DNA of 14,963 bases, from the NCBI GenBank assembly GCA_045612165.1, contig JAZKYM010000094.1, forward strand, positions 1 to 14,963, in the 5' to 3' direction. This document shows, piece after piece, positions 2,101 to 14,963 of this stretch. The stretch comes from Vescimonas sp. GTDB lineage: Bacteria > Bacillota > Clostridia > Oscillospirales > Oscillospiraceae. The position numbers and the translations under genes are program-made. The notes under the pieces were generated by a model that saw only the letters and a program-made list of their open reading frames with translations, made no database searches and was not told the origin of the DNA. The first letter of the stretch is position 1. Every line of letters starts with the position of its first letter.

Positions 2101-2147
2101 AATAAAATAAGGAAATATCACCAACTTTCATACAGGAGGAAATATAT

Positions 2148-3485
2148 ATGATTCAGGTCAATCTGACCAACATTCAGTCTTTTGTGACCCCTAATTATGA
2201 GGCAGAACTGGCTGAGCGTGTTCGTGACGCCCACGACAAGCTGCAGCTGGGCACCGGCGCCGGCAGTGACTTTATCGGCTGGGTGCGGCTGCCTGCCGAC
2301 TACGATAAAGAAGAATTTGCCCGTATCAAGGCTGCTGCCGAGAAGATCAAGAGCGACAGTAAGGCGTTGGTGGTGGTAGGCATCGGCGGCTCCTATCTGG
2401 GTGCCCGTGGTGTTATCGAGTGCCTGTGCTCTGCCAACTACAACCTGAAGAAGAAGGATACGCCCAACATCTACTTTGCCGGTAACGGTCTCTCTTCCGA
2501 TCAGCTGAGCGAAGTGGTGGAGCTGCTGGGTGACGACGACTTTTCCGTTAATGTCATCTCCAAGTCCGGCACTACCACCGAGCCTGCCGTGGCTTTCCGC
2601 TTTTTCCGCAAGCTGCTGGAGGACAAGTACGGCGAGGAAGAAGCTGCTCGCCGCATCTATGCCACCACTGACCGCGCTCGCGGCGCGCTGAAGACGCTGG
2701 CAGATGAGGCCGGCTATGAATCCTTCGTGGTGCCGGATGATGTGGGTGGCCGTTACAGTGTGCTGACCGCCGTGGGTCTGCTGCCCATCGCCGTGGCCGG
2801 TGTGGACATTGACGCGCTGATGGCCGGTGCTGCCGATATGATGGAAAGCTGTGCCAAGCCCGAACTGGAGACCAATCCTGCATGGCAGTACGGTGCTGCC
2901 CGTTACGAGCTGTACCGCACCGGCAAGAAGATCGAGATTCTGGCTGCCTATGAGCCTAATTTCCGATTCATGTGCGAGTGGTGGAAGCAGCTCTACGGTG
3001 AGAGCGAGGGAAAAGAGAACAAGGGTCTGTTCCCTGCCAGCGTGGAATTTACCGCAGACCTGCACTCCATGGGTCAGTACATTCAGGAGGGTGAGCGCCA
3101 CATCTTTGAGACGGTGGTGCGTCTGGGCAAATCCGCCACGACGAATTGCGTGCCCTTTGACAAGGTCAATGGCGATGGCCTGAACTTCCTGGCCGGTAAG
3201 GATATGGACTTCATCCGCCAGCAGGCCATGGACGGTACGCTGCTGGCCCATGTGGAGGGCGGTGTGCCCAACATCATCGTGGGTCTGGAAAAGCTGGATG
3301 CGTATTCTCTGGGCGAATTGATTTATTTCTTTGAGTATGCCTGCGGCATCAGCGGTTATCTGCTGGATGTGAATCCCTTTGATCAGCCCGGTGTGGAGGC
3401 CTATAAGAAGAACATGTTCGCGCTGTTGGGCAAGCCCGGCTATGAGGAGCTGCGCCGGGAACTGTTGGCCAAGCTGGATCAGTAA
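2148..3485 (+). CDS. pgi: Glucose-6-phosphate isomerase (445-aa Firmicutes-type PGI)
   Basis: The length, the overall sequence and the conserved [14 protein letters not shown] sis-domain motif are typical of bacillus/clostridial Pgi. A strong SD (acAGGAGGaaatatatATG) precedes the start. Confidence 0.9.
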
Positions 3486-3609
3486 CGATTGTTCGTTTCT
3501 ACAAAAAAAGAGTGTATAATTTCTCATTGCTATTTTCGCGACAATGTGGTATCGTATAGTTAAATATAGGAACCACTGGTTGCTGTATATTCTGAAGGAG
3601 TGATTTCTT

Positions 3610-4020
3610 ATGGTTAGATTGATTATGGGTGCCGCCGGTGCCGGCAAGACCAAGCAGCTGATCGACCTGATCCACGCCAGCGTGGAAGCCGAAAAGGGCA
3701 GTGTTGTATGCATTGAGCCCGGCGCAGATATGACTTATGACGTGAGCCACAGCGTGCGTCTGGTCAACGCCGGCGAGTATGATCTGGATTCTTTTGAGTG
3801 CCTGCGCGGCTTTGTCAGCGGTCTGTATGCAGGCAATTACGATATCTCTCATGTCTACGTGGACAATCTGTGCAAGATTACCCGTAACAACGACGTGCGT
3901 GAGACGGAGAAGTTCCTCAACTGGCTGGAGCGCTTCAGCGAGAAGAACATGGTGAAGTTCACCGTGACCCTCAGCGCTGATGTGGGTACCGCTACGGATG
4001 GTATGCGTCAGTTCATGTAA
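3610..4020 (+). CDS. Small P-loop (Walker-A-like GAAGAGKT) hypothetical protein, 136 aa
   Basis: AAGGAG lies 9 nt upstream of ATG 3610. The product starts MVRLIMGAAGAGKTKQLIDL... G+C resembles the backbone and a clean terminator follows. I cannot assign a family beyond the P-loop-like motif. Confidence 0.6.
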   Translation: MVRLIMGAAGAGKTKQLIDLIHASVEAEKGSVVCIEPGADMTYDVSHSVRLVNAGEYDLDSFECLRGFVSGLYAGNYDISHVYVDNLCKITRNNDVRETEKFLNWLERFSEKNMVKFTVTLSADVGTATDGMRQFM

Positions 4021-4253: not shown

Positions 4254-4336
4254 GCGGATGTGGCGAAACTGGTATACGCGATAGATTTAGGCTCTATTGG
4301 GCGACCGTGCAGGTTCGAGTCCTGTCATCCGCACCA
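4254..4336 (+). tRNA. tRNA-Leu (anticodon TAG), 83 nt, type-II long variable arm, encoded CCA
   Basis: GCGGATG-TG-GCG-aaactggtata-CGC-G-ATAGA-TTTAGGC-TCTAT-tgggcgaccgtgc-AGGTTCGAGTCCTG-TCATCCGC-A-CCA. The acceptor, anticodon and T stems all pair. Confidence 0.85.
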
Positions 4337-4337
4337 C

Positions 4338-4378
4338 AAAAACACCGGGTTTCTTTTTGGGAATCCGGTGTTTTTCTA
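4338..4378 (+). terminator. Rho-independent terminator after tRNA-Leu
   Basis: Stem aaaacaccgg (4339-4348) / ccggtgtttt (4365-4374) followed by a T-rich tttttct. Confidence 0.65.
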
Positions 4379-4464
4379 ACTTTTTATAAGATTTGTGAGC
4401 TTAGGAAACACTCTGTGCGCGAATTCATAAGTTTCGTTATGTTTTGTAATGTCACAAAATTATA

Positions 4465-4493
4465 TTGACACATAGCAAAACTTGTGATATGTT
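4465..4493 (+). promoter_or_regulatory. Strong sigma70-like promoter of the cassette operon (-35 TTGACA, 17-bp spacer, extended -10 TGaTATGTT)
   Basis: tataTTGACAcatagcaaaacttgTGaTATGTTaaatgcagatcatAGGAGGtgctgttATG. A perfect -35 and a TGn-extended -10 sit 27 nt upstream of the start of gene A. The inverted repeat TTTTGT-N6-ACAAAA at 4442-4459 lies just upstream. Confidence 0.55.
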
Positions 4494-4519
4494 AAATGCA
4501 GATCATAGGAGGTGCTGTT

Positions 4520-5272
4520 ATGGATTACGATAAAATTATCATTGACCTATTGAATCGCATTGTTACATTGGAAGAACGAGTGGCCAAGCTGGAAAGTGGA
4601 AGCACGAATGTGCCTCAGGAGAGCCCTGAGTTGCCTGCTGGAAGTAAAAAATATCGTTTCCTCTCTGATTATCTCTACGAAAGCAACCAAGCACGGGTCA
4701 AGCTGACCTATGTCGAAATTGAGAACATCCTGAAATTTAAGCTTCCGGATTCCGCGGCCACCCATCGTGCGTTTTGGGCAAACACAACCAGCCACTCCAT
4801 TGCGCTTAGTTGGCTCAGCGTAAATTACTCTGTTGTGGAAGTTAATCTTGAAAATAAGTACATTGTTTTTGAGAAAATGAGGGATTTTGATACGATGAAA
4901 ACGGGAAGAAAAACAGCTACAACCGAAGAAAAGTATCTGAGCGTTTGCAAAAATTATGACATGATGGCTCTTTATCAGAAGCTGAGAGCGGCATTGTTCG
5001 ATGCGTTTGAAGGTGCTGGTACTGGCGCAACTGCTGACTATATTAGTTGGAATGTAAATGGCAAACGGCAGTTTGCTAACTTCTATATTCAGAAAAAGAA
5101 GATCCGCATTTTGACACTCACTCCGAGAAACAGCCACAGCGTGGGAGAGACTGTGCCGGACACACATCTGTGGACGTTAAACTATCAAACAGATATTTCT
5201 ACGGATGCGGATATTGAAAAAGTAAAAGACATTCTGCTTGATTCTTACTCTCAAATTAAACTGTCTATTTAA
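4520..5272 (+). CDS. Hypothetical protein (250 aa) with N-terminal coiled-coil segment; no recognisable catalytic motif
   Basis: AGGAGG lies 7 nt upstream of ATG 4520; the 4496 start in the track would contain the SD inside the ORF. The product starts MDYDKIIIDLLNRIVTLEERVAKLESG..., with a conserved-looking block LPDSAATHRAFWANTTSHSIALSWL. This is the first gene of the low-G+C operon. Confidence 0.6.
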   Translation: MDYDKIIIDLLNRIVTLEERVAKLESGSTNVPQESPELPAGSKKYRFLSDYLYESNQARVKLTYVEIENILKFKLPDSAATHRAFWANTTSHSIALSWLSVNYSVVEVNLENKYIVFEKMRDFDTMKTGRKTATTEEKYLSVCKNYDMMALYQKLRAALFDAFEGAGTGATADYISWNVNGKRQFANFYIQKKKIRILTLTPRNSHSVGETVPDTHLWTLNYQTDISTDADIEKVKDILLDSYSQIKLSI

Positions 5273-5302
5273 GGTATTCATTTAGGGCTCGAGGTGCTCG
5301 CT

Positions 5303-5848
5303 ATGGCAAGAAAACGCATTACAAACAGACCCGGGTTGTTTGGCACCGTTTACCACTATGACGAGAATGGAAATCCCGTCGGAAAGAGTCGCCCTGGTTT
5401 GATTGAGGGAACCAGAGTGTATACCGACCAAGACGGTCGATACGCTGGAAAAAGCCGCCCGGGTTTTCTTGCAAAGGAAGTATTTGCGGATGCAGATCAC
5501 AATTATATTTCCTCCTATGAAGGCCTCTGCGGTGATGTTCACTTTCAAAATGGTGTACCTATAGGCCATACAAGACCGGGGTTCTTCGATTCGATATATA
5601 CCACTTTAGAAACAGAGGATGACCTTCCCGAAGAAGAGTATTGCGAGGAAGACTACTTTGAAGAAGAGTGGACAGAAGATCAAGAGAATTGTACTGGCAT
5701 CGCAGATGAAGCTGAATCCACAAATTGTGAGGAGCACCTTCCCCAAATTTCTCAGCATCCCGTGGTAAAGAATCTTCAACTGTTCGTACTATGCCTTGTG
5801 ATCTGTACGGTCATTGCCTGCGTTTATGCGATTATTCATTTGGATTAA
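5303..5848 (+). CDS. Small tail-anchored membrane protein (181 aa) with four YD-like repeats, an acidic linker and a C-terminal TM helix
   Basis: GAGG lies 8 nt upstream of ATG 5303; the track start at 5294 is a GTG upstream of the SD. Four tandem about 22-aa repeats occur: NRPGLFGTVYHYDENGNPVG, KSRPGLIEGTRVYTDQDGRYAG, KSRPGFLAKEVF...GVPIG and HTRPGFFDSIYT. Then follow an acidic stretch EEEYCEEDYFEEEWTEDQE and a C-terminal hydrophobic helix LFVLCLVICTVIACVYAII. Confidence 0.55.
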   Translation: MARKRITNRPGLFGTVYHYDENGNPVGKSRPGLIEGTRVYTDQDGRYAGKSRPGFLAKEVFADADHNYISSYEGLCGDVHFQNGVPIGHTRPGFFDSIYTTLETEDDLPEEEYCEEDYFEEEWTEDQENCTGIADEAESTNCEEHLPQISQHPVVKNLQLFVLCLVICTVIACVYAIIHLD

Positions 5849-5873
5849 TTTGAGATAGCAACTGTTCTTTTGC

Positions 5874-5897
5874 TATCATTCTATCGAACAAAAAGTT
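5874..5897 (+). other. Intra-operon hairpin (gatagcaa/ttgctatc) without a U-tract, between genes B and C
   Basis: An 8-bp perfect stem (5874-5881 / 5890-5897) with loop ctgttctt, followed by attctatcg rather than a T run. Confidence 0.3.
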
Positions 5898-5980
5898 TGC
5901 ATGTAGTTGGTTATATAAAAAGAACAGGTAGGAAGAAGAAATGTTGATTTTATTTAAATCAAGTTAGAAGGTGCTAATGT

Positions 5981-7147
5981 ATGAATAAATCTCAAAAGAT
6001 CGCACTGCTCAGAACACTAAGCAGTAACCGGGTATTGCGTACAGAATTATTTTATGACATTCTTGAAAAATGCGGAGATTTAAAGCTAAATTACACTGAT
6101 TATTCCTCCACACATCCCATTGATTGCGAAAAAGAAATGCTGCGGCTGCCTACCGCAGATTACGATATGTGTTGTGCGTTAGTCACTATGCTTCTTCGGG
6201 AGGATCATTTTTCTAACGGCAGTTTTGAGGAGCGCCAGCGTGCTGGTCAAGTAAAACCCATCATAGATAGAATGATTTTACTGTTAGAATATGAGAATAA
6301 CCCAGGAGGTCAAACTATGAAGAAAATCCTTCTCGAGGATTTGCTACATATCCCTGCAGAAATGGCAAGTGATGTAAAGGTCAAGTTCAACCAGCACGAT
6401 GGTGACAATGATCCTATGGAGCTGTATTTGCGTGAGCCGGAGATCGTGAATACACAATGGCTGTTTTGGCGCAACAAGCAGCGATATTTCTCCATTGGGC
6501 AAATTGCAATCTGCCTTTTGAAGCTTTCTAATGACACTTGGCTATTGACCACCATCAAGCGTGTTACCAAAGAATTGGGCGTGCTGGATGGCATCAATTA
6601 CGAAGGTGAAGAACTCGAAGAATACCGCCAGTATTACGGCCGCGTAATCATCAAGTACCACAAAACAGCACAAACCCAAGGTATGTACTACCCCACCGTG
6701 TGCAATGATTTGGAAGTGTTACAGCTGCTTCCTACCACATTTGATGGAGATGAATTTCCAGGCTATGATAATGTCAGATTGTCCTACATGCAACTAGCCT
6801 CCATTTTGGAGCGGAGAAAGCAAAGCTGGGTTGCTGCGCTTGAGAACCAAAAAGCAGTGTATTTAATTACTGATACATGCAATGGAAAATTGTATGTAGG
6901 GTCTGCTACCAGCGAGAAGGGTATGCTCTTGCAACGATGGAGCAACTATGTAGATAACGGACACGGCGGAAACAAAGAACTGCTCGCATTGGTGAAAGAA
7001 AAAGGGTTCGACTATGTGAAACAGTATTTTCAATACTCAATTTTGGAAAACTACAACGCAAAAATTGATGACCATGTTGTCCTGAAGCGAGAGTCCTGGT
7101 GGAAGGATGCCTTGCAAAGCAGGCGTTTTGGATATAATAGCAATTAA
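5981..7147 (+). CDS. Two-domain protein (388 aa): unknown N-terminal region plus C-terminal GIY-YIG nuclease domain
   Basis: The C-terminal about 100 aa, AVYLITDTCNGKLYVGSATSEKGMLLQRWSNYVDNGHGG...ESWWKDALQSRRFGYNSN, fits the GIY-YIG pattern (VYxI...GKxYVGSA...R...H/N...E...N). The SD aAGAAGGtg lies upstream of ATG 5981. An in-frame internal AGGAGG+7nt+ATG occurs at 6304-6319. Confidence 0.65.
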   Translation: MNKSQKIALLRTLSSNRVLRTELFYDILEKCGDLKLNYTDYSSTHPIDCEKEMLRLPTADYDMCCALVTMLLREDHFSNGSFEERQRAGQVKPIIDRMILLLEYENNPGGQTMKKILLEDLLHIPAEMASDVKVKFNQHDGDNDPMELYLREPEIVNTQWLFWRNKQRYFSIGQIAICLLKLSNDTWLLTTIKRVTKELGVLDGINYEGEELEEYRQYYGRVIIKYHKTAQTQGMYYPTVCNDLEVLQLLPTTFDGDEFPGYDNVRLSYMQLASILERRKQSWVAALENQKAVYLITDTCNGKLYVGSATSEKGMLLQRWSNYVDNGHGGNKELLALVKEKGFDYVKQYFQYSILENYNAKIDDHVVLKRESWWKDALQSRRFGYNSN

Positions 7148-7219
7148 ATGTTGCTGCATGTAAAATGACATCACAAGATAAGCGAAGATAACGAGTATCG
7201 TACGGAAGGAGTGTGAAAT

Positions 7220-8479
7220 ATGTCCTCATACAATGAACTTATTAAAAACTTTGAGAAGATCAGAGCCTACATGCGAGAGTTCTATGTCTACGGGTTCAAA
7301 AGCCGTGACGACTACCAGAAGAAGAGCGCCCGTTCCTATGATGACGAGCGGCGTCGCCTGGAAAGCTGGCTTGGGGATCACATGAGCTTCGTGCGCACTC
7401 CTGAAGGCAAAAATGTTTTCATCTCCATCGATAGTCGCACCATCCGGCATAACCCACTGTACAATGCCTGGAAAGCGAAGAGTTTTACCGATGGCGACAT
7501 TACTCTGCATTTCATTCTCTTTGACATTCTCCATGACCCTGGCGTGAAGCGAACCATTGCCGAGCTCATGGAAGAAATGGATACGAAATATCTGTCGGGA
7601 TTTGAAATGCCCATGATGTTCGACGAATCCACTGTTCGAAAAAAGCTCAAGGAATACTGCGAGGCCGGCATCATCACTCAGGAAAAAGAAGGCCGCAAGA
7701 TATATTACCGAAGAACAGATAGCGCCGATATTTCCGATTTGAACGATGTCCTGCATTATTTTTCGGAGGTTGCGCCCTGCGGTGTCATCGGCTCTTACAT
7801 ACTGGATAGAGAAGATACGGACACCGATGCGTTTACATTCAAGCATCATTACATAACCGGCGCCATTGATAGCGGTGTTCTTGCCTCGCTGTTCACGGCC
7901 ATGCGAGAAAAACGGGCTGTCACAGTCACGAATATGAGTCGACGCAAAGACATTCCCAGACGCAATCGTGTTGTTCCGCTTCGTATTTTTATCAGCGCGC
8001 AAAGCGGTCGTCAGCATCTGTTTGTTTACATGCCTGACTTTAATTCGTTTAATTCTTTACGCGTAGATTATCTTTCCAATGTTAAACTGGAAGATCCCAC
8101 GCCCCGCTTTGACGAACTCCGAGCAGAACTCGACCGAATGCAAAGCAAAATGTGGGGTGTCAGCGTAAAGCGAAACAAGTGGGGCAACGAGCATCTTGAG
8201 CATGTAGAGTTCACAATAAAGGTTGAAGATAATGAGGAATATATTGTCAAGCGCCTGGAACGTGAGAAACGCATTGGCACGGTGGAAAAGCTTGACGAGC
8301 ATACCTACCGTTTTTCGGCGGATGTCTATGATACCAGCGAGATGATCCCCTGGATCCGAACCTTTATTTGCCGCATCGATAAGATGAATTTCTCCAATCG
8401 CACCATTGAGAATCAATTCAAGAAGGATCTGGAAGCCATGTATCGGATGTATGGTATCAGACAGGAGGTGGGCGAATGA
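7220..8479 (+). CDS. WYL-domain family protein (419 aa; wHTH - WYL - C-terminal WCX-like domain), PafB/BrxR-like putative regulator
   Basis: GGAAGGAG lies 8 nt upstream of ATG 7220. A central winged-HTH-like segment reads KRTIAELMEEMDTKYLSGFEMPMMFDESTVRKKLKEYCEAGIITQEKEGRKIYYR. A WYL-like core reads RQHLFVYMPDFNSFNSLRVDYLSNVKL. A C-terminal ...MIPWIRTFICRI... block is typical of WCX extensions. Confidence 0.5.
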   Translation: MSSYNELIKNFEKIRAYMREFYVYGFKSRDDYQKKSARSYDDERRRLESWLGDHMSFVRTPEGKNVFISIDSRTIRHNPLYNAWKAKSFTDGDITLHFILFDILHDPGVKRTIAELMEEMDTKYLSGFEMPMMFDESTVRKKLKEYCEAGIITQEKEGRKIYYRRTDSADISDLNDVLHYFSEVAPCGVIGSYILDREDTDTDAFTFKHHYITGAIDSGVLASLFTAMREKRAVTVTNMSRRKDIPRRNRVVPLRIFISAQSGRQHLFVYMPDFNSFNSLRVDYLSNVKLEDPTPRFDELRAELDRMQSKMWGVSVKRNKWGNEHLEHVEFTIKVEDNEEYIVKRLEREKRIGTVEKLDEHTYRFSADVYDTSEMIPWIRTFICRIDKMNFSNRTIENQFKKDLEAMYRMYGIRQEVGE

Positions 8480-9387
8480 TATTCAGTGAGCTTTACTCTG
8501 CCTATTACAATACGGTTGCCGCCATTCTTTCCGCTATCCTCGACGGTGAGCACTCCGAACAGGAATTGCAAAAGATCGTAGCGGATTACGCATTTGGCGA
8601 GAGTGTGCTGACCATTATGCCCTCCCTCAAAAGCGAAAAGTGGCAGCTGGTGCATTCCGATATGACCACCCCATTGGAACACAAGCCCACAATACCGCTG
8701 ACGACCCTTCAAAAGCGGTGGCTCAAGGCAATTTCTCTGGACCCCCGTGTGAAGCTGTTTGGTGTGGATTTTCCCGATCTTGAAGATGTGGAGCCCTTGT
8801 TCACATTTGCGGATTATTACATTTACGATCAATATAATGACGGCGATCCCTTTGAGGATGAGCAGTACATAAGAAATTTTAGAATCATTTTGGATGCTAT
8901 CCGCAAGGGTGCGCAGATCAAATTTGACATGACAAACCGTAAAGGCAATATGATGTTTGTCCGATGCCGTCCTTTGCGCCTGGAATATTCCGAAAAGGAT
9001 GATAAATTCCGAGTGGTTACGGCGGGCTGGCGGGCGGTTTCTACGGTTAACCTTGCCAAAATCAGAAGCTGCGCCTATGATATCGGTTATCGGCGAGTGA
9101 GCGGTCGGGAGAGAACGGTGGTTTACGACACTGTCACCGTTAAGATCCGCGACGAGCGAAACGCCATGGAACGCTTCATGCTTCATTTCGCCCATTTTGA
9201 AAAGCAAGCCGAGAAACTTGATAAGAAGCATTACCTCGTAAAAATCAAATATGCTCACGATGATGAATCGGAAATGGTGATCCGGATCCTTTCCTTTGGC
9301 CCTATGATTGAGGTCATGGAACCGGAGGCTTTCAGAAAATTAGTCATTGAAAAGCTAGAAAAACAGCTAAGCTGCGGACTCAAATAA
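8476..9387 (+). CDS. Second WYL-domain family protein (303 aa), translationally coupled to the upstream WYL gene (ATGA overlap), PafC-like partner
   Basis: The start ATG overlaps the stop of the upstream gene (8476-8479 ATGA). A WYL-like core reads NMMFVRCRPLRLEYSEKDDKFRVVTAGWR. The C-terminal VIRILSFGPMIEVMEPEAFRKLVIEKLEKQ matches the characteristic ...G..veVleP..lr... WCX signature of WYL/PafBC-type proteins. Confidence 0.5.
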   Translation: MIFSELYSAYYNTVAAILSAILDGEHSEQELQKIVADYAFGESVLTIMPSLKSEKWQLVHSDMTTPLEHKPTIPLTTLQKRWLKAISLDPRVKLFGVDFPDLEDVEPLFTFADYYIYDQYNDGDPFEDEQYIRNFRIILDAIRKGAQIKFDMTNRKGNMMFVRCRPLRLEYSEKDDKFRVVTAGWRAVSTVNLAKIRSCAYDIGYRRVSGRERTVVYDTVTVKIRDERNAMERFMLHFAHFEKQAEKLDKKHYLVKIKYAHDDESEMVIRILSFGPMIEVMEPEAFRKLVIEKLEKQLSCGLK

Positions 9388-9408
9388 GAGTTCGCAGCTT
9401 TTTTTCCG
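9369..9408 (+). terminator. Rho-independent terminator closing the cassette operon
   Basis: A 9-bp stem aagctgcgg (9369-9377) / tcgcagctt (9392-9400) with one G-U pair has the stop codon in its loop and is followed by TTTTTTT (9400-9406). Confidence 0.7.
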
Positions 9409-9438
9409 TGAAAAACGGTATGCGGATTGGTAAAATAT

Positions 9439-9459
9439 GCTTGCAAGGTACCTTCAAGC
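9439..9459 (+). promoter_or_regulatory. Near-perfect inverted repeat gcttgcaagg-ta-ccttcaagc just downstream of a TAAAAT -10-like hexamer (9431-9436): candidate operator
   Basis: The reverse complement of gcttgcaagg is ccttgcaagc, and the second arm ccttcaagc differs from it at one position. It lies in the long leader upstream of the SPFH-RtcB genes. Confidence 0.25.
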
Positions 9460-9558
9460 CAGTGTTTGAGTTGATCCTTCACAGCGGTGCACCAGGATGT
9501 TCCAAAGTGTATGCCAGAAGAATCCTTGCTCCTTATGAGCCTGTTCAGCTCGGATTTC

Positions 9559-9584
9559 GCGGGTTCGAATCCCGCCGTGCGCCA
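9559..9584 (+). other. Orphan tRNA 3'-end-like fragment (T arm GCGGG-TTCGAAT-CCCGC plus 3' acceptor strand ...CGTGCGCCA) with no matching 5' half
   Basis: ttcGCGGGTTCGAATCCCGCCGTGCGCCAaaag has the canonical T-loop TTCGAAT and a 5-bp T stem. No complementary acceptor 5' strand, D arm or anticodon arm lies within 120 nt upstream. It is not a copy of the tRNA-Leu or tRNA-Gly 3' ends in this window. Confidence 0.35.
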
Positions 9585-9882
9585 AAAGCGTATCGCCAGT
9601 GGTTTGGATTTGTCCTACGGGACGCAAAAACGGTACACTTAACTGTGTGCGAGAACGTTTTATTCTAAGATTCGTTATCATTCGGCAAAGAGAGAAATGC
9701 CCCCGGTAGATTTCTCGGCGCAATGCAAAGCGAGCCTTGCCTGGAAGCGGATACCGTGTTATCCCAATCGGTGCCAAAAGAGTGCTTTCCGCACCGTGCC
9801 GGAAATACTTAAGCTTTCAGCCGCTGCTTTTGCATGAATGATAGCGAGATCGCATTACTACCTTTCAGGAGGATTACATACT

Positions 9883-10986
9883 ATGAAAAAGATGATTATC
9901 AATGAAAATCAAAAGGGCTTTCTCTTCAAAAACGGCAAGTATATCAAGCTGCTGGATGCCGGCAAATATCATCTGTTTGGCGGCAAGGAGATCGTAATCT
10001 CCAATCTAGACCAGCCCATCGCCTGCAGCAAGTGTGCCCTGGAAACCTTGCTTGCCGATAAGTCTGTGTCCGAGCGTGTGACGGTGGTTGAGGTGGGCGA
10101 CGAGGAACTGGCGCTGCACTATGTGAACGGCAAGTTCTCCTCTGTGCTTCGCCACGGCAAACACGCGTTTTGGTCTGTGGTGGATCAGCATGAATTCAAA
10201 ATCGTAGATATCTCCACACCCGAAGTGGATGCATCTATCCCTGTGTACATCTTCTCCAAGATTCCTCAGATCTACTACACCAAAATCGAAGTTGCAGAGT
10301 ATCAGAAGGGCAGACTCTATTTCGATCAGAAGCTGGTGCGCATTTTGGATGCAGGCACCTATTACTTCTGGAAAACATCCACGAAGGTGGATGTAGGATT
10401 TGTGGACACCCGTTTGACGCAAATGAACATCACCGGTCAGGAGATTTTGACGGCAGATAAGGTATCCTTGCGCATCAACTTCGTCTGCAACTATCGTGTG
10501 ACCGACTACGTCAAGATTCTGACCGAGATCGATGATTTCGCAGAACAAATGCATGTGGCGGCACAGCTGGCTCTCCGGGAATATGTTGGCAAACACAAGC
10601 TGGATGAAATCCTGGAAAACAAGGATCAAATGTCCCAGTTTGTGTTCGCAAAGCTGAAGTCCAAGGAGAAGGATTTGTTCGTGGAAATTACGGATGCCGG
10701 TGTGAAGGATATTATCCTGCCCGGTGAGATCCGGGAAATCATGAACACCGTCTTGGTGGCTGAAAAGCGCGCGCAGGCCAATGTCATCACCCGCCGTGAG
10801 GAGGTAGCCTCCACTCGTTCTCTACTGAATACTGCAAAGCTGATGGACGAGAACCAGACCCTTTACAAGCTGAAGGAGCTGGAGTATGTGGAGCGCATTT
10901 GCGAGAATGTTGGCAACATTTCCTTAAATGGCAATGGCAACATCCTCTCCCAGCTGACAGCAATTCTGAAGGTCAACGACGTCTGA
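9883..10986 (+). CDS. SPFH/band-7 (stomatin/prohibitin/flotillin/HflKC) domain protein, 367 aa
   Basis: AGGAGG lies 10 nt upstream of ATG 9883; the track ORF start at 9838 lies upstream of the SD. The core NITGQEILTADKVSLRINFVCNYRVTDYVKI...LALREYVGKHKLDEIL...AGVKDIILPGEIREIMN...AEKRAQANVITRREE is typical of SPFH domains. No obvious N-terminal TM helix. Confidence 0.75.
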   Translation: MKKMIINENQKGFLFKNGKYIKLLDAGKYHLFGGKEIVISNLDQPIACSKCALETLLADKSVSERVTVVEVGDEELALHYVNGKFSSVLRHGKHAFWSVVDQHEFKIVDISTPEVDASIPVYIFSKIPQIYYTKIEVAEYQKGRLYFDQKLVRILDAGTYYFWKTSTKVDVGFVDTRLTQMNITGQEILTADKVSLRINFVCNYRVTDYVKILTEIDDFAEQMHVAAQLALREYVGKHKLDEILENKDQMSQFVFAKLKSKEKDLFVEITDAGVKDIILPGEIREIMNTVLVAEKRAQANVITRREEVASTRSLLNTAKLMDENQTLYKLKELEYVERICENVGNISLNGNGNILSQLTAILKVNDV

Positions 10987-11062
10987 TCCCGATACGGTCG
11001 GACACGTTGTAGCTGTGCATCATAAATAAAAGCCCGATCGTACCATAGGAAAGGAGAATGAC

Positions 11063-12271
11063 ATGATTGAGATTATAGGAAACTTTAACACCGCCCGTGT
11101 ATTTGCCACCACCCTGGACGATGGCGCGCGAGAGCAGATCAAGACGGTATGTGATACTGAGGCCTTTGCCTCTTCGAAGATCCGGATCATGCCCGATGTT
11201 CACGCAGGAAAGGGTTGCACCATTGGTACCACCATGACCATCACGGATAAGATCGTTCCCGCGATGGTTGGTGTGGATATCGGCTGCGGCATGTACACCG
11301 TATACCTTGGCAACATCGATATCGACTTTGAGAAGGTAGACGAGGCGGCACACTTCATCCCTTGCGGCAGAAATGTTTGGGAGGGCAGACAGGAGCGGTT
11401 CGACCTGACTCAGCTGCGTTGCTACCGGTCCCTCCGGGATACCAAGCGTCTTGAGCGATCCTTAGGCACTCTGGGTGGCGGTAATCACTTCATAGAGATC
11501 GATGCGGACGAGAACGGCGGCAAGTACCTGGTGATTCACTCGGGAAGCCGCAATCTCGGCACCCAGGTGGCCGAATTTTATCAGCAGCTGGCTGTGGATC
11601 TGAATGTAGGCAAGGAGGAGTATTTCAAGCAGCGTGAGGAGATCATCCGCACCTACAAGGAACAAGGCAGACGCGCCGAGATCCAGACAACGCTGAAGGC
11701 GTTGGATAAGGATTTTCAAGCTAAGAATCCTACGCTCCCCCGTGATCTTTGCTTCCTCTATGGTTCCTTTATGGCCGACTACCTCCACGATGTGGATATC
11801 TGCCAGAAGTTTGCGGAGAGAAATCGCGCGAAGATGGCAGAAATTATCCTTGATCGCTGCGGCTGGACTGCCCTGGAGACCTTCCAGACCATTCATAACT
11901 ACATTGATGTGAATGAGATGGTGCTCCGCAAGGGTGCTGTATCTGCCAAGGCAGGCGAGAAACTGCTGGTTCCCATCAATATGCGTGATGGCTCGCTGAT
12001 CTGCATTGCCAAGGGTAACCAGGATTGGCACTGTTCCGCACCTCACGGTGCCGGACGGCTGATGTCCCGTTCTGCTGCCTTCGAGCGGCTGACCATGGCT
12101 GAGTATGAGGCCGAGATGGCAGGTATCTATTCCACCTGCGTTGTCCCCGACACCCTCGACGAGTCCCCTATGGCTTACAAGAGCATGGATGAAATCGTAG
12201 AGAACATCGAGCCTACTGCCGAAATTCTTTGCAGAATAAAGCCCATTTACAATTTTAAGGCTGCAGAATAA
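11063..12271 (+). CDS. rtcB: RtcB-family RNA ligase (3'-phosphate/5'-hydroxyl nucleic-acid ligase), 402 aa
   Basis: AAGGAG lies 6 nt upstream of ATG 11063. RtcB hallmark motifs are present: MPDVHAGKGCTIGT, VGVDIGCGM, GTLGGGNHFIEI and SAPHGAGR. The gene is 76 nt downstream of the SPFH gene on the same strand. Confidence 0.85.
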   Translation: MIEIIGNFNTARVFATTLDDGAREQIKTVCDTEAFASSKIRIMPDVHAGKGCTIGTTMTITDKIVPAMVGVDIGCGMYTVYLGNIDIDFEKVDEAAHFIPCGRNVWEGRQERFDLTQLRCYRSLRDTKRLERSLGTLGGGNHFIEIDADENGGKYLVIHSGSRNLGTQVAEFYQQLAVDLNVGKEEYFKQREEIIRTYKEQGRRAEIQTTLKALDKDFQAKNPTLPRDLCFLYGSFMADYLHDVDICQKFAERNRAKMAEIILDRCGWTALETFQTIHNYIDVNEMVLRKGAVSAKAGEKLLVPINMRDGSLICIAKGNQDWHCSAPHGAGRLMSRSAAFERLTMAEYEAEMAGIYSTCVVPDTLDESPMAYKSMDEIVENIEPTAEILCRIKPIYNFKAAE

Positions 12272-12365
12272 AAAAGATGTCACTTTTTACCGCCTCTATA
12301 CATATACATCATAGAGGTGGTATATCGTGTCACTGTTGATGGAACCCTGCGAAAACAAAGAGATA

Positions 12366-12438
12366 ATATGATATAATCTCTACTAAGAAAGGTCATCATG
12401 TTCGTTATAGTAGGACTCGGTGACCTTTTACTTTTTAG
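12366..12438 (+). promoter_or_regulatory. Compact unit: extended -10 (TGaTATAAT, 12369-12377) embedded in an AGAGAT/ATCTCT inverted repeat, followed about 10 nt later by a hairpin (aaaggtca/tgaccttt, 12388-12428) and T-rich tract; candidate small transcript or regulatory element
   Basis: aaAGAGATaatatGaTATAATCTCTactaagAAAGGTCAtcatgttcgttatagtaggactcggTGACCTTTtactttttag. Only a 5-codon ORF is possible here. Confidence 0.2.
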
Positions 12439-12520
12439 CAGGTCGTGTTTTAAAAATCTCCATAATTTGTAACTTTCTTTCGGCTCTAGAGCTGGGAAAG
12501 TGGGGAAGTTTTCAGCCAGA

Positions 12521-12556
12521 AAATGTGCGGACGATAGGTTGATCGTCCGCACTATT
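12521..12556 (-). terminator. Bidirectional hairpin terminator between convergent rtcB and recombinase genes
   Basis: Stem tgcggacgat / atcgtccgca with loop aggttg, flanked by aaaa on the + upstream side and tattttt on the + downstream side. It lies 24 nt beyond the recombinase stop codon (12578) in minus-strand direction. Confidence 0.6.
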
Positions 12557-12577: not shown

Positions 12578-13828
12578 TCACTTATTCGTCTGTATGCGCA
12601 GGAGCAGAAGCTCATCGATTTCTTCCTCCAGGGCTTGCACTTCCTGATGGAGCTGGTGCAGTTTTGCGAGGATTGCTGGGCATTTTCTCTCCCGCAGGCA
12701 TTTGCGCTGACGGAGCTCGGCTTGCTCTGCCAGCAGCTGATCTCGTAGCTTTTCTGCGTACCGCTGCACCCTAGCATCCAGCTCGGATTCCCGGATGCGG
12801 TGAGAGGGACAGACTTCTTTTCCATGGCGCATATAGCTTCTGCACAGATATTCCACCCGGCGGTTGCCGTTCCAACACCGGATCCTGGGTACGAAGGTGC
12901 TGCCGCAATCGCCGCAAGCCAGCAATCCCGCATAGCGGTGACAGGCGGTATTGCCCCGGTAAGGCTTGGCATTGGCTTTCAGCAGTGCTTGCGCCTGCTC
13001 CCATTCCTCCCGGGCAACGATGGCCGGATAGAAATCCGTATGGCGGAATTGCTCAGCTTCCGGCACGGCGGTGACGGTGCGCCCGTGGGTCTCTGTCTGA
13101 TGATTGATCAGCAGGCCGGTGTAGCTCTCGTCGGCTAATACATTTTTGACGCTCTGATAGGTCCAACGGTAGCACTTGCCCTCGGCTTTTCCATGGCGTT
13201 CATCCTGGAGCTGCCGGGGCGTTTTTCGCTCCATGGCATTGAGCCTGCGGGTGATCTCCTTTTGCCCCAGGCCCTCGCAGTAAAGTTCATAAATCAAGCG
13301 CACCGTCAGCGCCGCTTCCGGGTGGAGGCGGATACTGTTGGTGTTTTTATCTTTCCAGTAACCGAAGGGAGGCGTGACCACAATGCCTTTCTTTTGTTTC
13401 TCGCGATAACCATGACGGATCTTGTTGCCGATGTCCTTGGCGTAGTAATCGTTCATCAGTTGGGTGATGCCGATGGCAAGTTCGTCCTCGTCATCCATGG
13501 TGCTCAGCCCTTCGGTAGCAGACAAAACTGCCACGCCTTGATGGCGCAAATAATCTATGAATAGAGAGGTCTGCGTCCGGTGGCGTCCCAGCCGGGACAT
13601 ATCTTTTACGATTACCGCATCGATCTGTCTCTTTTCTGCCGCTGCAGACAGCCTCTCCAAGCCTTTGCGGTCGAAGCGCATGCCGGAAGAGTTGTCATCG
13701 TAAGACTCTCCCACCACCGTATAGCCATGCTCCCGGGCATAGTCCCGGATGATCTGCAGCTGATTCTCCAGGGAGTTCATTTCTACATCATCGTCATTGG
13801 ATAGCCTCCCATACAGCCATACTCTCAT
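12578..13828 (-). CDS. Large serine recombinase (resolvase/invertase N-terminal catalytic domain + recombinase domain + zinc ribbon with short coiled coil), 416 aa
   Basis: The N-terminus MRVWLYGRLSNDD...ENQ has the catalytic Ser at position 10, followed by DAVIVKDMSRLGR. A zinc-ribbon CGDCGSTF...C..HGKEVCPSH is followed by a coiled coil. GGAGG lies 7 nt upstream of the ATG, and the start overlaps the upstream recombinase stop (ATGA). Confidence 0.85.
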   Translation of the reverse strand: MRVWLYGRLSNDDDVEMNSLENQLQIIRDYAREHGYTVVGESYDDNSSGMRFDRKGLERLSAAAEKRQIDAVIVKDMSRLGRHRTQTSLFIDYLRHQGVAVLSATEGLSTMDDEDELAIGITQLMNDYYAKDIGNKIRHGYREKQKKGIVVTPPFGYWKDKNTNSIRLHPEAALTVRLIYELYCEGLGQKEITRRLNAMERKTPRQLQDERHGKAEGKCYRWTYQSVKNVLADESYTGLLINHQTETHGRTVTAVPEAEQFRHTDFYPAIVAREEWEQAQALLKANAKPYRGNTACHRYAGLLACGDCGSTFVPRIRCWNGNRRVEYLCRSYMRHGKEVCPSHRIRESELDARVQRYAEKLRDQLLAEQAELRQRKCLRERKCPAILAKLHQLHQEVQALEEEIDELLLLRIQTNK

Positions 13829-14963
13829 GCGCTCACCTCCTCGATAATCTCGGCCAGTTCGCTGGTGGTCAGCACACCGTTTTCGTAAGTCTCGGTGTGG
13901 TCACGGAAAGGCGCTTTCAGCTTGATATCCAGGCTGATACCTTCCTCGGATTCGTACACATAAATCTTCTCAATCAGCAGTCGCAGGTGTGCCTCGGTCA
14001 TACATCCATCAGCCAGGATCTGATCGATGAGGCTGATGTCTTTCTTTAGTTTCGCCTGTCGGCTGCGAATGGTCTGATCCAAGTTTTCCAGCTCTGCGAT
14101 CTTTTTCTTGGCCTGGGCAATCTGTTCTTCCCGTTTGGCAATCATGCGGTCATACCGGGCGGCGTTGGCCTTATCTCGTATTCTCTCCATGAGAATATCC
14201 TCCATTTCTTCTTCCATGGTGTCGATCTGCTGGTGAAGTTTCTTCAGTTGCGCCAGGGTGTTGGTGACCTTGGGGGTCCATCGATCCACCGTGTCCTGCA
14301 TGGCATCCCATATTTGCAGGTACTGATCTTTGGTGCGGAGCAGCTCCGTACGGATGATCTCATCCAGGTATTCCTCCCGAATAGCGTGGGAGGAGCAATG
14401 CTCCTTGCCATAGCGGAAGTAGGTGCTGCACCAATATTCCACCCGGCTGGCAGCCTTATTTTTGATGGTCTTACCAGTGAAGGATCTACCGCAATCGCCG
14501 CAGGTGACCAACCCGGAGTAGCGGTGGATGGTGCTCCCCGGACCGGCTCGGACATTGTTTTGCTTTCGTGCAGCCAGCAGATCCTGCACCTGCAGCCACA
14601 GTTCTTTGGTGACGATCACCGGCAGGAAGTTTTCATGCCGGAACTGTTCGCTTGCTTCTGTGAAGCGGAAGGTTCGGTTGATTTTGTTCTGCTCGCTCTT
14701 ATGACAGATGAGGGTGCCGGTGTAGGTTTCGTCCTGCAGAATGCGACTGACCATTGTGGCGTTCCAAAGATACTTTTTCTTCACGTCCCTCTCCAAATGC
14801 TCCGGCATTCGCTTGCCAATCAGCTCCAGCTGCATCTGCGCTGGGGTCTTTCGCTTTTCTTCATTGAGTAGTCTGGCGATGGCCTTGAGACCCATGCCAC
14901 TGATATAGGACGAAAAAATCAGGTGGACCGTTTCCGCAGCTTCCGGAACGATCTCCACCTGAT
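13825..14963 (-). CDS. Second large serine recombinase, partial (N-terminal catalytic domain lies beyond the window edge); recombinase domain + zinc ribbon + long coiled coil present
   Basis: The reading frame is open to the window end; the track's 'M' at 14958 is a GTG inside the ORF, preceded by an in-frame Gln codon. Zinc ribbon CGDCGRSF...C..YGKEHCSSH and an extended coiled coil are present. The stop TGA overlaps the downstream recombinase ATG by 4 bp. Confidence 0.8.
   Translation of the reverse strand, partial: QVEIVPEAAETVHLIFSSYISGMGLKAIARLLNEEKRKTPAQMQLELIGKRMPEHLERDVKKKYLWNATMVSRILQDETYTGTLICHKSEQNKINRTFRFTEASEQFRHENFLPVIVTKELWLQVQDLLAARKQNNVRAGPGSTIHRYSGLVTCGDCGRSFTGKTIKNKAASRVEYWCSTYFRYGKEHCSSHAIREEYLDEIIRTELLRTKDQYLQIWDAMQDTVDRWTPKVTNTLAQLKKLHQQIDTMEEEMEDILMERIRDKANAARYDRMIAKREEQIAQAKKKIAELENLDQTIRSRQAKLKKDISLIDQILADGCMTEAHLRLLIEKIYVYESEEGISLDIKLKAPFRDHTETYENGVLTTSELAEIIEEVSA

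Follow-up and report, generated by a model that had tools for sequence, protein, structure and literature searches.

A low-G+C gene block beside tRNA-Leu in a Vescimonas contig is probably a mosaic of three modules: an A-B cassette, a DUF6508-UzuA nuclease and a WYL pair heading a putative RNA-repair unit

A contig of 14,963 nucleotides from Vescimonas sp. (GenBank assembly GCA_045612165.1, contig JAZKYM010000094.1; hereafter, at its full length, the window) carries a low-G+C block at 4380-9410, in which five genes, A, B, C, D, and E, lie all on the forward strand (4520-9387), preceded by a promoter and closed by a strong terminator, with a tRNA-Leu gene adjoining. A preliminary description of the block, made from its sequence, had read the five genes as a candidate for one undescribed defence or toxin system. 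Comparison of the window with ~125 related loci (locus labels L001-L126; protein labels, P-numbers) indicates instead that the block is in all probability a mosaic of three separable modules, placed head to tail: module 1 would be an A-B cassette (4426-5848), module 2 would be gene C (5981-7147), and module 3 would be the gene pair D-E (7220-9387). The best reading of the block, which we regard as likely, is that a defence-island mosaic, consisting of A-B and a DUF6508-UzuA variant, abuts a WYL-controlled RNA-repair unit. Uzume, the system of UzuA, is already named, and an RNA-repair unit of this kind has been predicted earlier from comparative genomics; new here are the Uzume fusion variant, the A-B cassette, and, within the RNA-repair unit, two features, an invariant box and a candidate two-state RNA, which lie mostly beyond the coordinates of the block. 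The nearest relatives of the window are metagenome-assembled gut Clostridia genomes labelled Eubacteriales or Oscillospiraceae.

The modules are delimited by the positions at which homology to related loci begins and ends. At the left break, blastn homology with L003, L126, and L006 begins at 4430, 4426, and 4431, respectively, and the sequences upstream of these positions are unrelated, only one of them being a tRNA. At the right break, homology to every C locus stops at 7145-7148, and homology to most D loci begins at ~7206 (7162 at the earliest). The modules are also delimited by the company that their homologues keep. Gene D has at least 493 species-level relatives, 80 loci of which were fetched for neighbourhood counts. 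Gene E lies directly 3' of D in 78 of the 78 loci having downstream sequence, and, where the sequence past D-E reaches at least 6 kb (33 loci), RtcB and/or SPFH lies downstream in 27. Upstream of D-E, the genes vary by species, the largest cluster comprising 4 loci, and A, B, or C is present in none of the 59 loci whose upstream sequence is at least 3 kb long. Counted from gene C, D or E is near C in none of 31 other C loci, A-B is present in only two arrangements (L003/L004 and L126), and none of A, B, D, and E is near C relatives in 26 further metagenome loci. The results show that homologues of the five genes do not co-occur as a unit. We conclude that the claim of an undescribed single five-gene system, whose nuclease moreover falls within a named system, does not hold.

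Genes D and E, correctly described as translationally coupled, overlap by ATGA. Their assignment as two WYL-domain proteins stands for D, which matches Pfam WYL PF13280 (3.2e-5; 24.3 bits, cut-off 21.8), and takes a different form for E, which has a WYL-like region and matches WCX PF25583 (1.3e-5; 25.9 bits, cut-off 23.9), a family for which D scores only 13.6 bits; the PADLOC WYL model matches both (D, 1.6e-11; E, 1.9e-10). At residues 100-180 of D there are sub-threshold matches to the helix-turn-helix (HTH) families PaaX, ArsR, and Penicillinase_R, and profile searches detected no HTH in E. Pairwise comparison of D with E gave no sequence similarity, and comparison by sequence with solved structures gave no match for E and a weak ArsR match for D, with no solved WYL protein matched by either. 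D would share with the regulators PafBC, BrxR, and CapW the layout HTH-WYL-WCX, the HTH signal being weak, whereas no HTH is detectable in E, an extra N-terminus of ~100 residues is present in D, neither protein matches solved WYL proteins in sequence, and the target of D-E would be an RNA-repair unit, as against the DNA-damage regulon or defence system of the known regulators. A further likeness, to PafB/PafC, is presumably the organization as a two-gene pair with overlapping genes.

The preliminary description took the WYL pair to be the sensor of the nuclease. The constant partners of D-E, however, lie downstream, and comprise a candidate promoter/operator box, a structured RNA, SPFH, and RtcB, which argues against that assignment. 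The box, TTCGCAGCTTTTTTTCCGTGA, is followed at ~17 nt by TGGTAAAAT; box and TGGTAAAAT are identical or nearly so after E in 69 D loci of differing species, independent of the preceding sequence, and a promoter-like match at 9408-9436 overlaps the box and has TGGTAAAAT as its −10 element. The box occurs twice in L013, L032, and L060.

Between E and the SPFH gene lies a non-coding interval of 450 bp that is conserved at 67-86% identity in at least 24 species. RNAalifold predicts 82 base pairs for 9440-9860, of which 39 show compensatory changes. No Rfam family was found for this RNA, and ARAGORN called no tRNA there in the window; the RNA contains a canonical T-arm and an anticodon-arm-like hairpin, and at the corresponding place in L057 and L076 ARAGORN reports a tRNA-Asp. 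An acceptor-type helix (9507-9513 with 9576-9582) is paired in 98.9% of cells, and rival hairpins, in which the two strands of that helix pair with neighbouring segments, are paired in 98.5% and 97.3% of cells, with compensatory changes. Because every substitution preserves both mutually exclusive folds, the 9440-9860 segment looks, from its alignment, like a two-state RNA. A cloverleaf acceptor stem at 9486-9492 was considered and dropped, since the alignment pairs this segment with 9507-9514. The true start of the SPFH gene is probably ATG 9884 (MKKMIIN...), since AGGAGG lies 9 nt before it and the DNA up to ~9840 is conserved as RNA; the gap between the SPFH gene and RtcB is 76 bp. Ten D-E loci without SPFH (L017, L026, L045, L047, L051, L054, L060, L066, L085, and L086) have between E and RtcB, ~1-3 kb past E, one to three tRNA-like genes called by ARAGORN, some with anticodons unusual for bacteria (Phe-AAA, Tyr-AUA, and Ile-AAU). 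SPFH-less D-E loci have another conserved leader, GAGGTCACGAAAGGCGCAGACAGCAA, after the same promoter box.

According to the mechanism that we propose for this module, D/E, a heteromeric WYL/WCX transcription-factor pair, would bind the box just past its own terminator and would control the promoter of the tRNA-like RNA, SPFH/Band-7, and RtcB, probably upon the occurrence of damaged RNA ends. Burroughs and Aravind in 2016, as quoted in a later paper (bioRxiv 10.1101/312249), predicted a system in which RtcB and Band-7 are joined by a 'band-7-associated tRNA', and for WYL and CARF transcription factors a role has been proposed in sensing RNA that has cyclic-phosphate ends and in regulating RNA-repair pathways (PMC9503650). 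The unit downstream of D-E fits both of these published ideas, the former as it is quoted. Like the predicted system, compared here through the citing paper's description of it, the window encodes RtcB, SPFH/Band-7, and a putative tRNA-like RNA side by side; unlike the system as so described, the window has an RNA of ~400 nt that is tRNA-like only in its anticodon-arm-like hairpin, its T-arm, and a possible acceptor helix, and has the D-E pair and the invariant box at the head of the unit. A second known system for comparison is the Salmonella rsr-yrlBA-rtcBA operon, which is under the control of RtcR, a CARF-domain activator sensing damaged tRNA (PMC7790460). In both, a ligand-sensing transcription factor adjoins an RNA ligase and a non-coding RNA that mimics tRNA, the sensing and the mimicry being putative in the window, whereas the window has a WYL/WCX pair in place of a sigma-54 CARF activator, SPFH in place of Ro60/Rsr, no RtcA, and a promoter that looks to be of sigma-70 type.

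Gene C had been described as an unknown N-terminal region joined to a GIY-YIG nuclease domain. The GIY-YIG domain is present, and the region preceding it resolves into a DUF6508-like part and the remainder of UzuA. A look-up of identical sequences gave nothing for C. PADLOC UzuA profiles match C at 1.6e-49 and 1.9e-47, the former, PDLC03973, over positions 59-278 of a model of 278. Many relatives of C are 276 aa long, start at the position of M113 of C, and are 80% identical to its residues 113-388, and one such relative, P0101, spans positions 5-278 of the UzuA model; therefore, C is a complete UzuA with an extension of 112 residues. The GIY-YIG domain matches its Pfam family at 5e-4, under the gathering cut-off, and matches the catalytic domain of I-TevI at 3.7e-4 over residues 291-386. 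Residues Y294, Y305, R319, H328, E371, and N386 correspond to the catalytic residues of GIY-YIG nucleases and are invariant in 25 sequences, and the domain is predicted to cut nucleic acid. Homologues that are 86% (L001), 81% (L005), and 79% (L002) identical to C are solitary among housekeeping genes; C relatives in L001, L002, L005, and the 26 metagenome loci are solitary, and this subgroup occurs with A-B in three arrangements. In L001, the solitary homologue (388 aa) lies just 3' of a tRNA-Arg ACG gene (6364-6440).

Uzume was reportedly first described by Millman et al. in 2022. In the passages that name it, reviews present Uzume as a single-gene anti-phage system with GIY-YIG homology and an unknown mechanism (PMC12926258; bioRxiv 10.1101/2024.10.26.620412). 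Gene C agrees with Uzume, as it appears in those passages, in that residues 113-388 constitute a complete UzuA with an intact GIY-YIG site and in that its relatives are usually solitary, in varied neighbourhoods, and it differs in having the DUF6508-like N-terminal domain. A sister group of C (413-aa forms) has full-length DUF6508. Residues 1-112 of C, used as the query of an exhaustive search, returned 191 representatives, mostly stand-alone proteins of ~100-145 aa, and DUF6508 is fused elsewhere to Macro, LEM-3-type GIY-YIG, PD-(D/E)XK nuclease, UDG, and DUF1643 domains (P0366, P0367, P0369, P0381, and P0389). This domain company suggests that DUF6508 is a targeting or sensing domain common to enzymes whose substrate is modified or damaged DNA. 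Gene C would act as a self-sufficient Uzume-type defence nuclease in which the DUF6508 part would serve for targeting or sensing. Macro and DUF1643 genes also occur beside relatives of A or B (L119 and L006). A literature search found no paper that mentions DUF7662, a domain of gene A, or DUF6508.

Genes A and B start at 4520 (MDYDK, as in all homologues of A) and at ATG 5303, respectively, both starts differing from those of the raw open reading frames. The description of A as a coiled-coil protein applies to its first ~25 residues, to which the coiled-coil-type helix is confined; the remainder matches Pfam DUF7662 (1.1e-12) and, weakly, DUF5655 (4e-4). No solved structure matched A by sequence, and a structure model of A (predicted local distance difference test score, pLDDT, of 74) has a C-terminal domain that is weakly YdhG/YjbR-like (E ~0.08), from which no function can be deduced. 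The description of B as a tail-anchored membrane protein with YD-like repeats is borne out by four RPG...Y.D..G...GKS (YxDxxG) repeats and a hydrophobic C-terminal anchor (19-residue Kyte-Doolittle maximum of 3.06 at residue 160 of 181), and fails at the level of family: B matches no Pfam family at E<=10, YD/RHS included, and none in NCBIfam, PHROGs, or PADLOC, and none of 193 clusters of B homologues has a Pfam domain.

A and B are found together and apart in a range of contexts. A-B occurs without C in L006 and L007, within an element with integrase, excisionase, and DUF927 genes; B occurs without A in L119-L125, in two kinds of long gene arrays. In L122 (3440-5988), the B homologue lies directly after homologues of Bunzi BnzB (2e-103) and PDC-M09A (1e-72), and downstream of it are a stand-alone DUF6508 gene and a gene of 344 aa, the family of which also follows a relative of A in L008; Pfam and PADLOC scans of the other array neighbours in L119 and L122 gave nothing beyond BnzB and PDC-M09A. 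Relatives of A have different partner genes in L008, L089, and L092. In two relatives (L089, 7001-8125; L126, 210-950), the N-terminal half of A is near-identical and DUF7225 replaces DUF5655 C-terminally, and L089 encodes the DUF5655 part separately, in a gene immediately 3' of the relative of A. We suggest that A would be the soluble part of the cassette, with an exchangeable C-terminal domain, that B would be the membrane-anchored partner of A, and that the cassette, with its own conserved promoter, would move between genomic contexts. The contexts of A-B are typical of defence islands, and from this company we infer that A-B is an accessory defence or conflict cassette.

An alternative for this module, possible though on balance doubtful, is that A-B has no role in defence and is an addiction module (membrane toxin B with partner A), an anti-defence module, or other mobile-element cargo. 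The small size and tail anchor of B would suit a membrane toxin, A-B in L006 and L007 sits among the accessory genes of a mobile element, and B in L119 belongs to extended arrays of uncharacterized small genes, among them Macro and ADP-ribosylglycohydrolase domains, for which counter-defence is one possible function. However, searches of Pfam, NCBIfam, PHROGs, and PADLOC matched A and B to no toxin-antitoxin or anti-defence family, the neighbours include defence-type genes (BnzB and PDC-M09A in L122; a PbeA/type IV restriction-like helicase in L003), and no relatives of A, nor of C, were found among 2.9 million viral contigs.

Several points weigh against reading the block as a mosaic with a separate RNA-repair regulator and a self-sufficient nuclease. 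Binding of D/E to the invariant box is a prediction, as is their ligand, for which damaged RNA ends are proposed. The structure model of C has a pLDDT of ~85-90 in the N-terminal domain, and is poor outside it (pLDDT 52) and unfit for a fold search. No strong terminators were found between A, B, C, D, and E, nor a clear promoter of D's own, and read-through could join A-E on one transcript in this strain. The order and orientation of A, B, and C are alike in the window, in L003, where 5 kb of cargo lies between B and C, and in L126, where two small genes do so and where A has a different C-terminal domain; in L122-L125, the gene directly after B is a stand-alone DUF6508 gene. Because of this kept order and this adjacency, a functional tie of A-B, or of B alone, to the DUF6508 part of C is possible. 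In its full form, such a tie would make A-B-C (4426-7148) one three-gene Uzume-type system, in which A and membrane-anchored B sense infection or restrain DUF6508-UzuA, with D-E as a separate RNA-repair regulator; the occurrence of one gene family (344/352 aa) beside both a relative of A (L008) and the B-DUF6508 pair (L122) also speaks for it. If this were true, A and B would act through DUF6508 as a general adaptor to nucleases, glycosylases, and Macro domains. We rate a three-gene unit as rather improbable, however, because the three cases of A-B-C are closely related, at 70-90% identity, such that shared descent explains them, and because each part is also found alone: C in L001, L005, and all the 276-aa forms examined, A-B in L006 and L007, and B in L119-L125; in L003, moreover, the cargo that parts A-B from C is on the opposite strand. 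Least credible is the single A-E system of the preliminary description, with D/E sensing and regulating the nuclease and membrane parts, for which the tight co-directional packing between one strong promoter and one strong terminator, the known occurrence of WYL regulators beside defence systems, and the PADLOC WYL matches of D and E speak, and against which stand the counts given above, the clean homology break at 7148-7206, the conserved downstream partners of D-E, and the membership of C in a named single-gene system.

The mosaic of three modules is also reflected in base composition. The G+C content is 44.1% in the block, 53.8% in the left flank (56.2% in its genes), 49.6% to the right (9388-12552), and 54.3% in the recombinase genes beyond. 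The fall in G+C that had been noted from the tRNA-Leu terminator onward is therefore real, but amounts to 10-14 points, not ~20, and is stepped, from 41.9% in A-B-C to 47.0% in D-E and to ~50% downstream; the step inside the block provided a first hint of mixed origin. The B-C spacer has a G+C content of 29.5%. The near-consensus promoter and the clean terminator described for the block are both confirmed (Table 1); the promoter of gene A is kept in three related loci, its −35 element and TG-extended −10 element being kept in L003 and L126.

The notion of an anti-phage island next to a tRNA gene survives for the left half of the block, which is horizontally mobile DNA of the defence-island type with a defence nuclease, and not for D-E, which stands apart, nor for integration at the tRNA. 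Like defence islands and integrative-element hotspots, the block has variable content between conserved anchors and low G+C, and loci related to the window have Bunzi BnzB, PDC-M09A, and the PbeA/type IV restriction-like helicase among the neighbours. Unlike such islands and hotspots, the window has no integrase beside the tRNA (none between 4336 and 12500) and no flanking direct repeats: a repeat search found no att-like or direct repeats around the block, and no repeat of the tRNA-Leu 3' end was found at the far border. The integrase and the repeated tRNA end of a tRNA-integrated island are thus both missing, and the cassette follows non-tRNA sequence in L003 and L126. Two tandem genes for large serine recombinases (Resolvase, Recombinase, and Zn ribbon domains; 12578-14958, reverse strand), the second cut by the contig end, lie 5 kb past the block; they probably come from another mobile element, because none of the 80 related D-E loci has them. 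Within the left flank, which is high in G+C, an open reading frame of 531 aa (2118-3713, reverse strand), with no Pfam or NCBIfam match, overlaps one of 445 aa (2148-3485, forward strand).

Table 1. Positions of genes, signals, and junctions in the window (+, forward strand;., no strand)
Feature	Position	Strand	Basis or remark
tRNA-Leu, anticodon UAG	4254-4336	+	ARAGORN; Rfam tRNA 57.8 bits; left neighbour, outside cassette
tRNA terminator hairpin	4338-4375	+	17-bp stem; G+C fall starts here (composition)
Left junction of A-B(-C) module	4426-4430	.	Onset of blastn homology
Gene A promoter, TTGACA-17-TATGTT with upstream TG (TG-extended −10)	4465-4493	+	10/12 match
Gene A, 250 aa	4520-5272	+	N-terminal helix, DUF7662, DUF5655-like C-terminal domain
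Gene B, 181 aa	5303-5848	+	Four repeats, acidic linker, C-terminal membrane anchor
Promoter-like site, TTGAGA-18-TATCAT with TG	5850-5879	+	10/12 match; in B-C spacer
Gene C N-terminal extension, residues 1-112, helical, DUF6508-like	5981-6316	+	Pfam DUF6508 8e-5
Gene C UzuA part, residues 113-388	6317-7147	+	PADLOC UzuA; GIY-YIG at residues 291-388 (6851-7147)
Junction of C module and D-E module	7148-7205	.	Homology ends/starts
Gene D, 419 aa	7220-8479	+	Winged-helix region ~100-180, WYL 220-289, weak WCX
Gene E, 303 aa	8476-9387	+	WYL-like region and WCX 220-296; coupled to D by ATGA
D-E terminator	9369-9400	+	13-bp stem and T-run (T7)
Invariant box TTCGCAGCTTTTTTTCCGTGA, then TGGTAAAAT	9391-9411; 9428-9436	+	Candidate D/E operator and downstream promoter; ~17 nt between
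Structured non-coding RNA or long leader; putative tRNA-like module	9440-9860	+	T-arm 9559-9575
SPFH/Band-7 gene	9838-10986	+	Pfam Band_7 2.8e-28
RtcB RNA ligase	11063-12271	+	Pfam RtcB 1.6e-56; phrog_1075 1.5e-124

The results bear on annotation: packed co-directional genes with one promoter and one terminator may belong to more than one system, and homology breakpoints and co-occurrence counts separate them in this block. With respect to gut Clostridia, the A-B pair is a compact, mobile two-gene cassette without an assigned function, and gene C provides a lead on Uzume, as a variant with DUF6508, a domain that elsewhere is joined to enzymes of modified or damaged DNA. The RNA-repair circuit of WYL pair, box, putative two-state RNA, SPFH, and RtcB is present in hundreds of species of gut Clostridia, and could show how RNA damage is sensed without RtcR.

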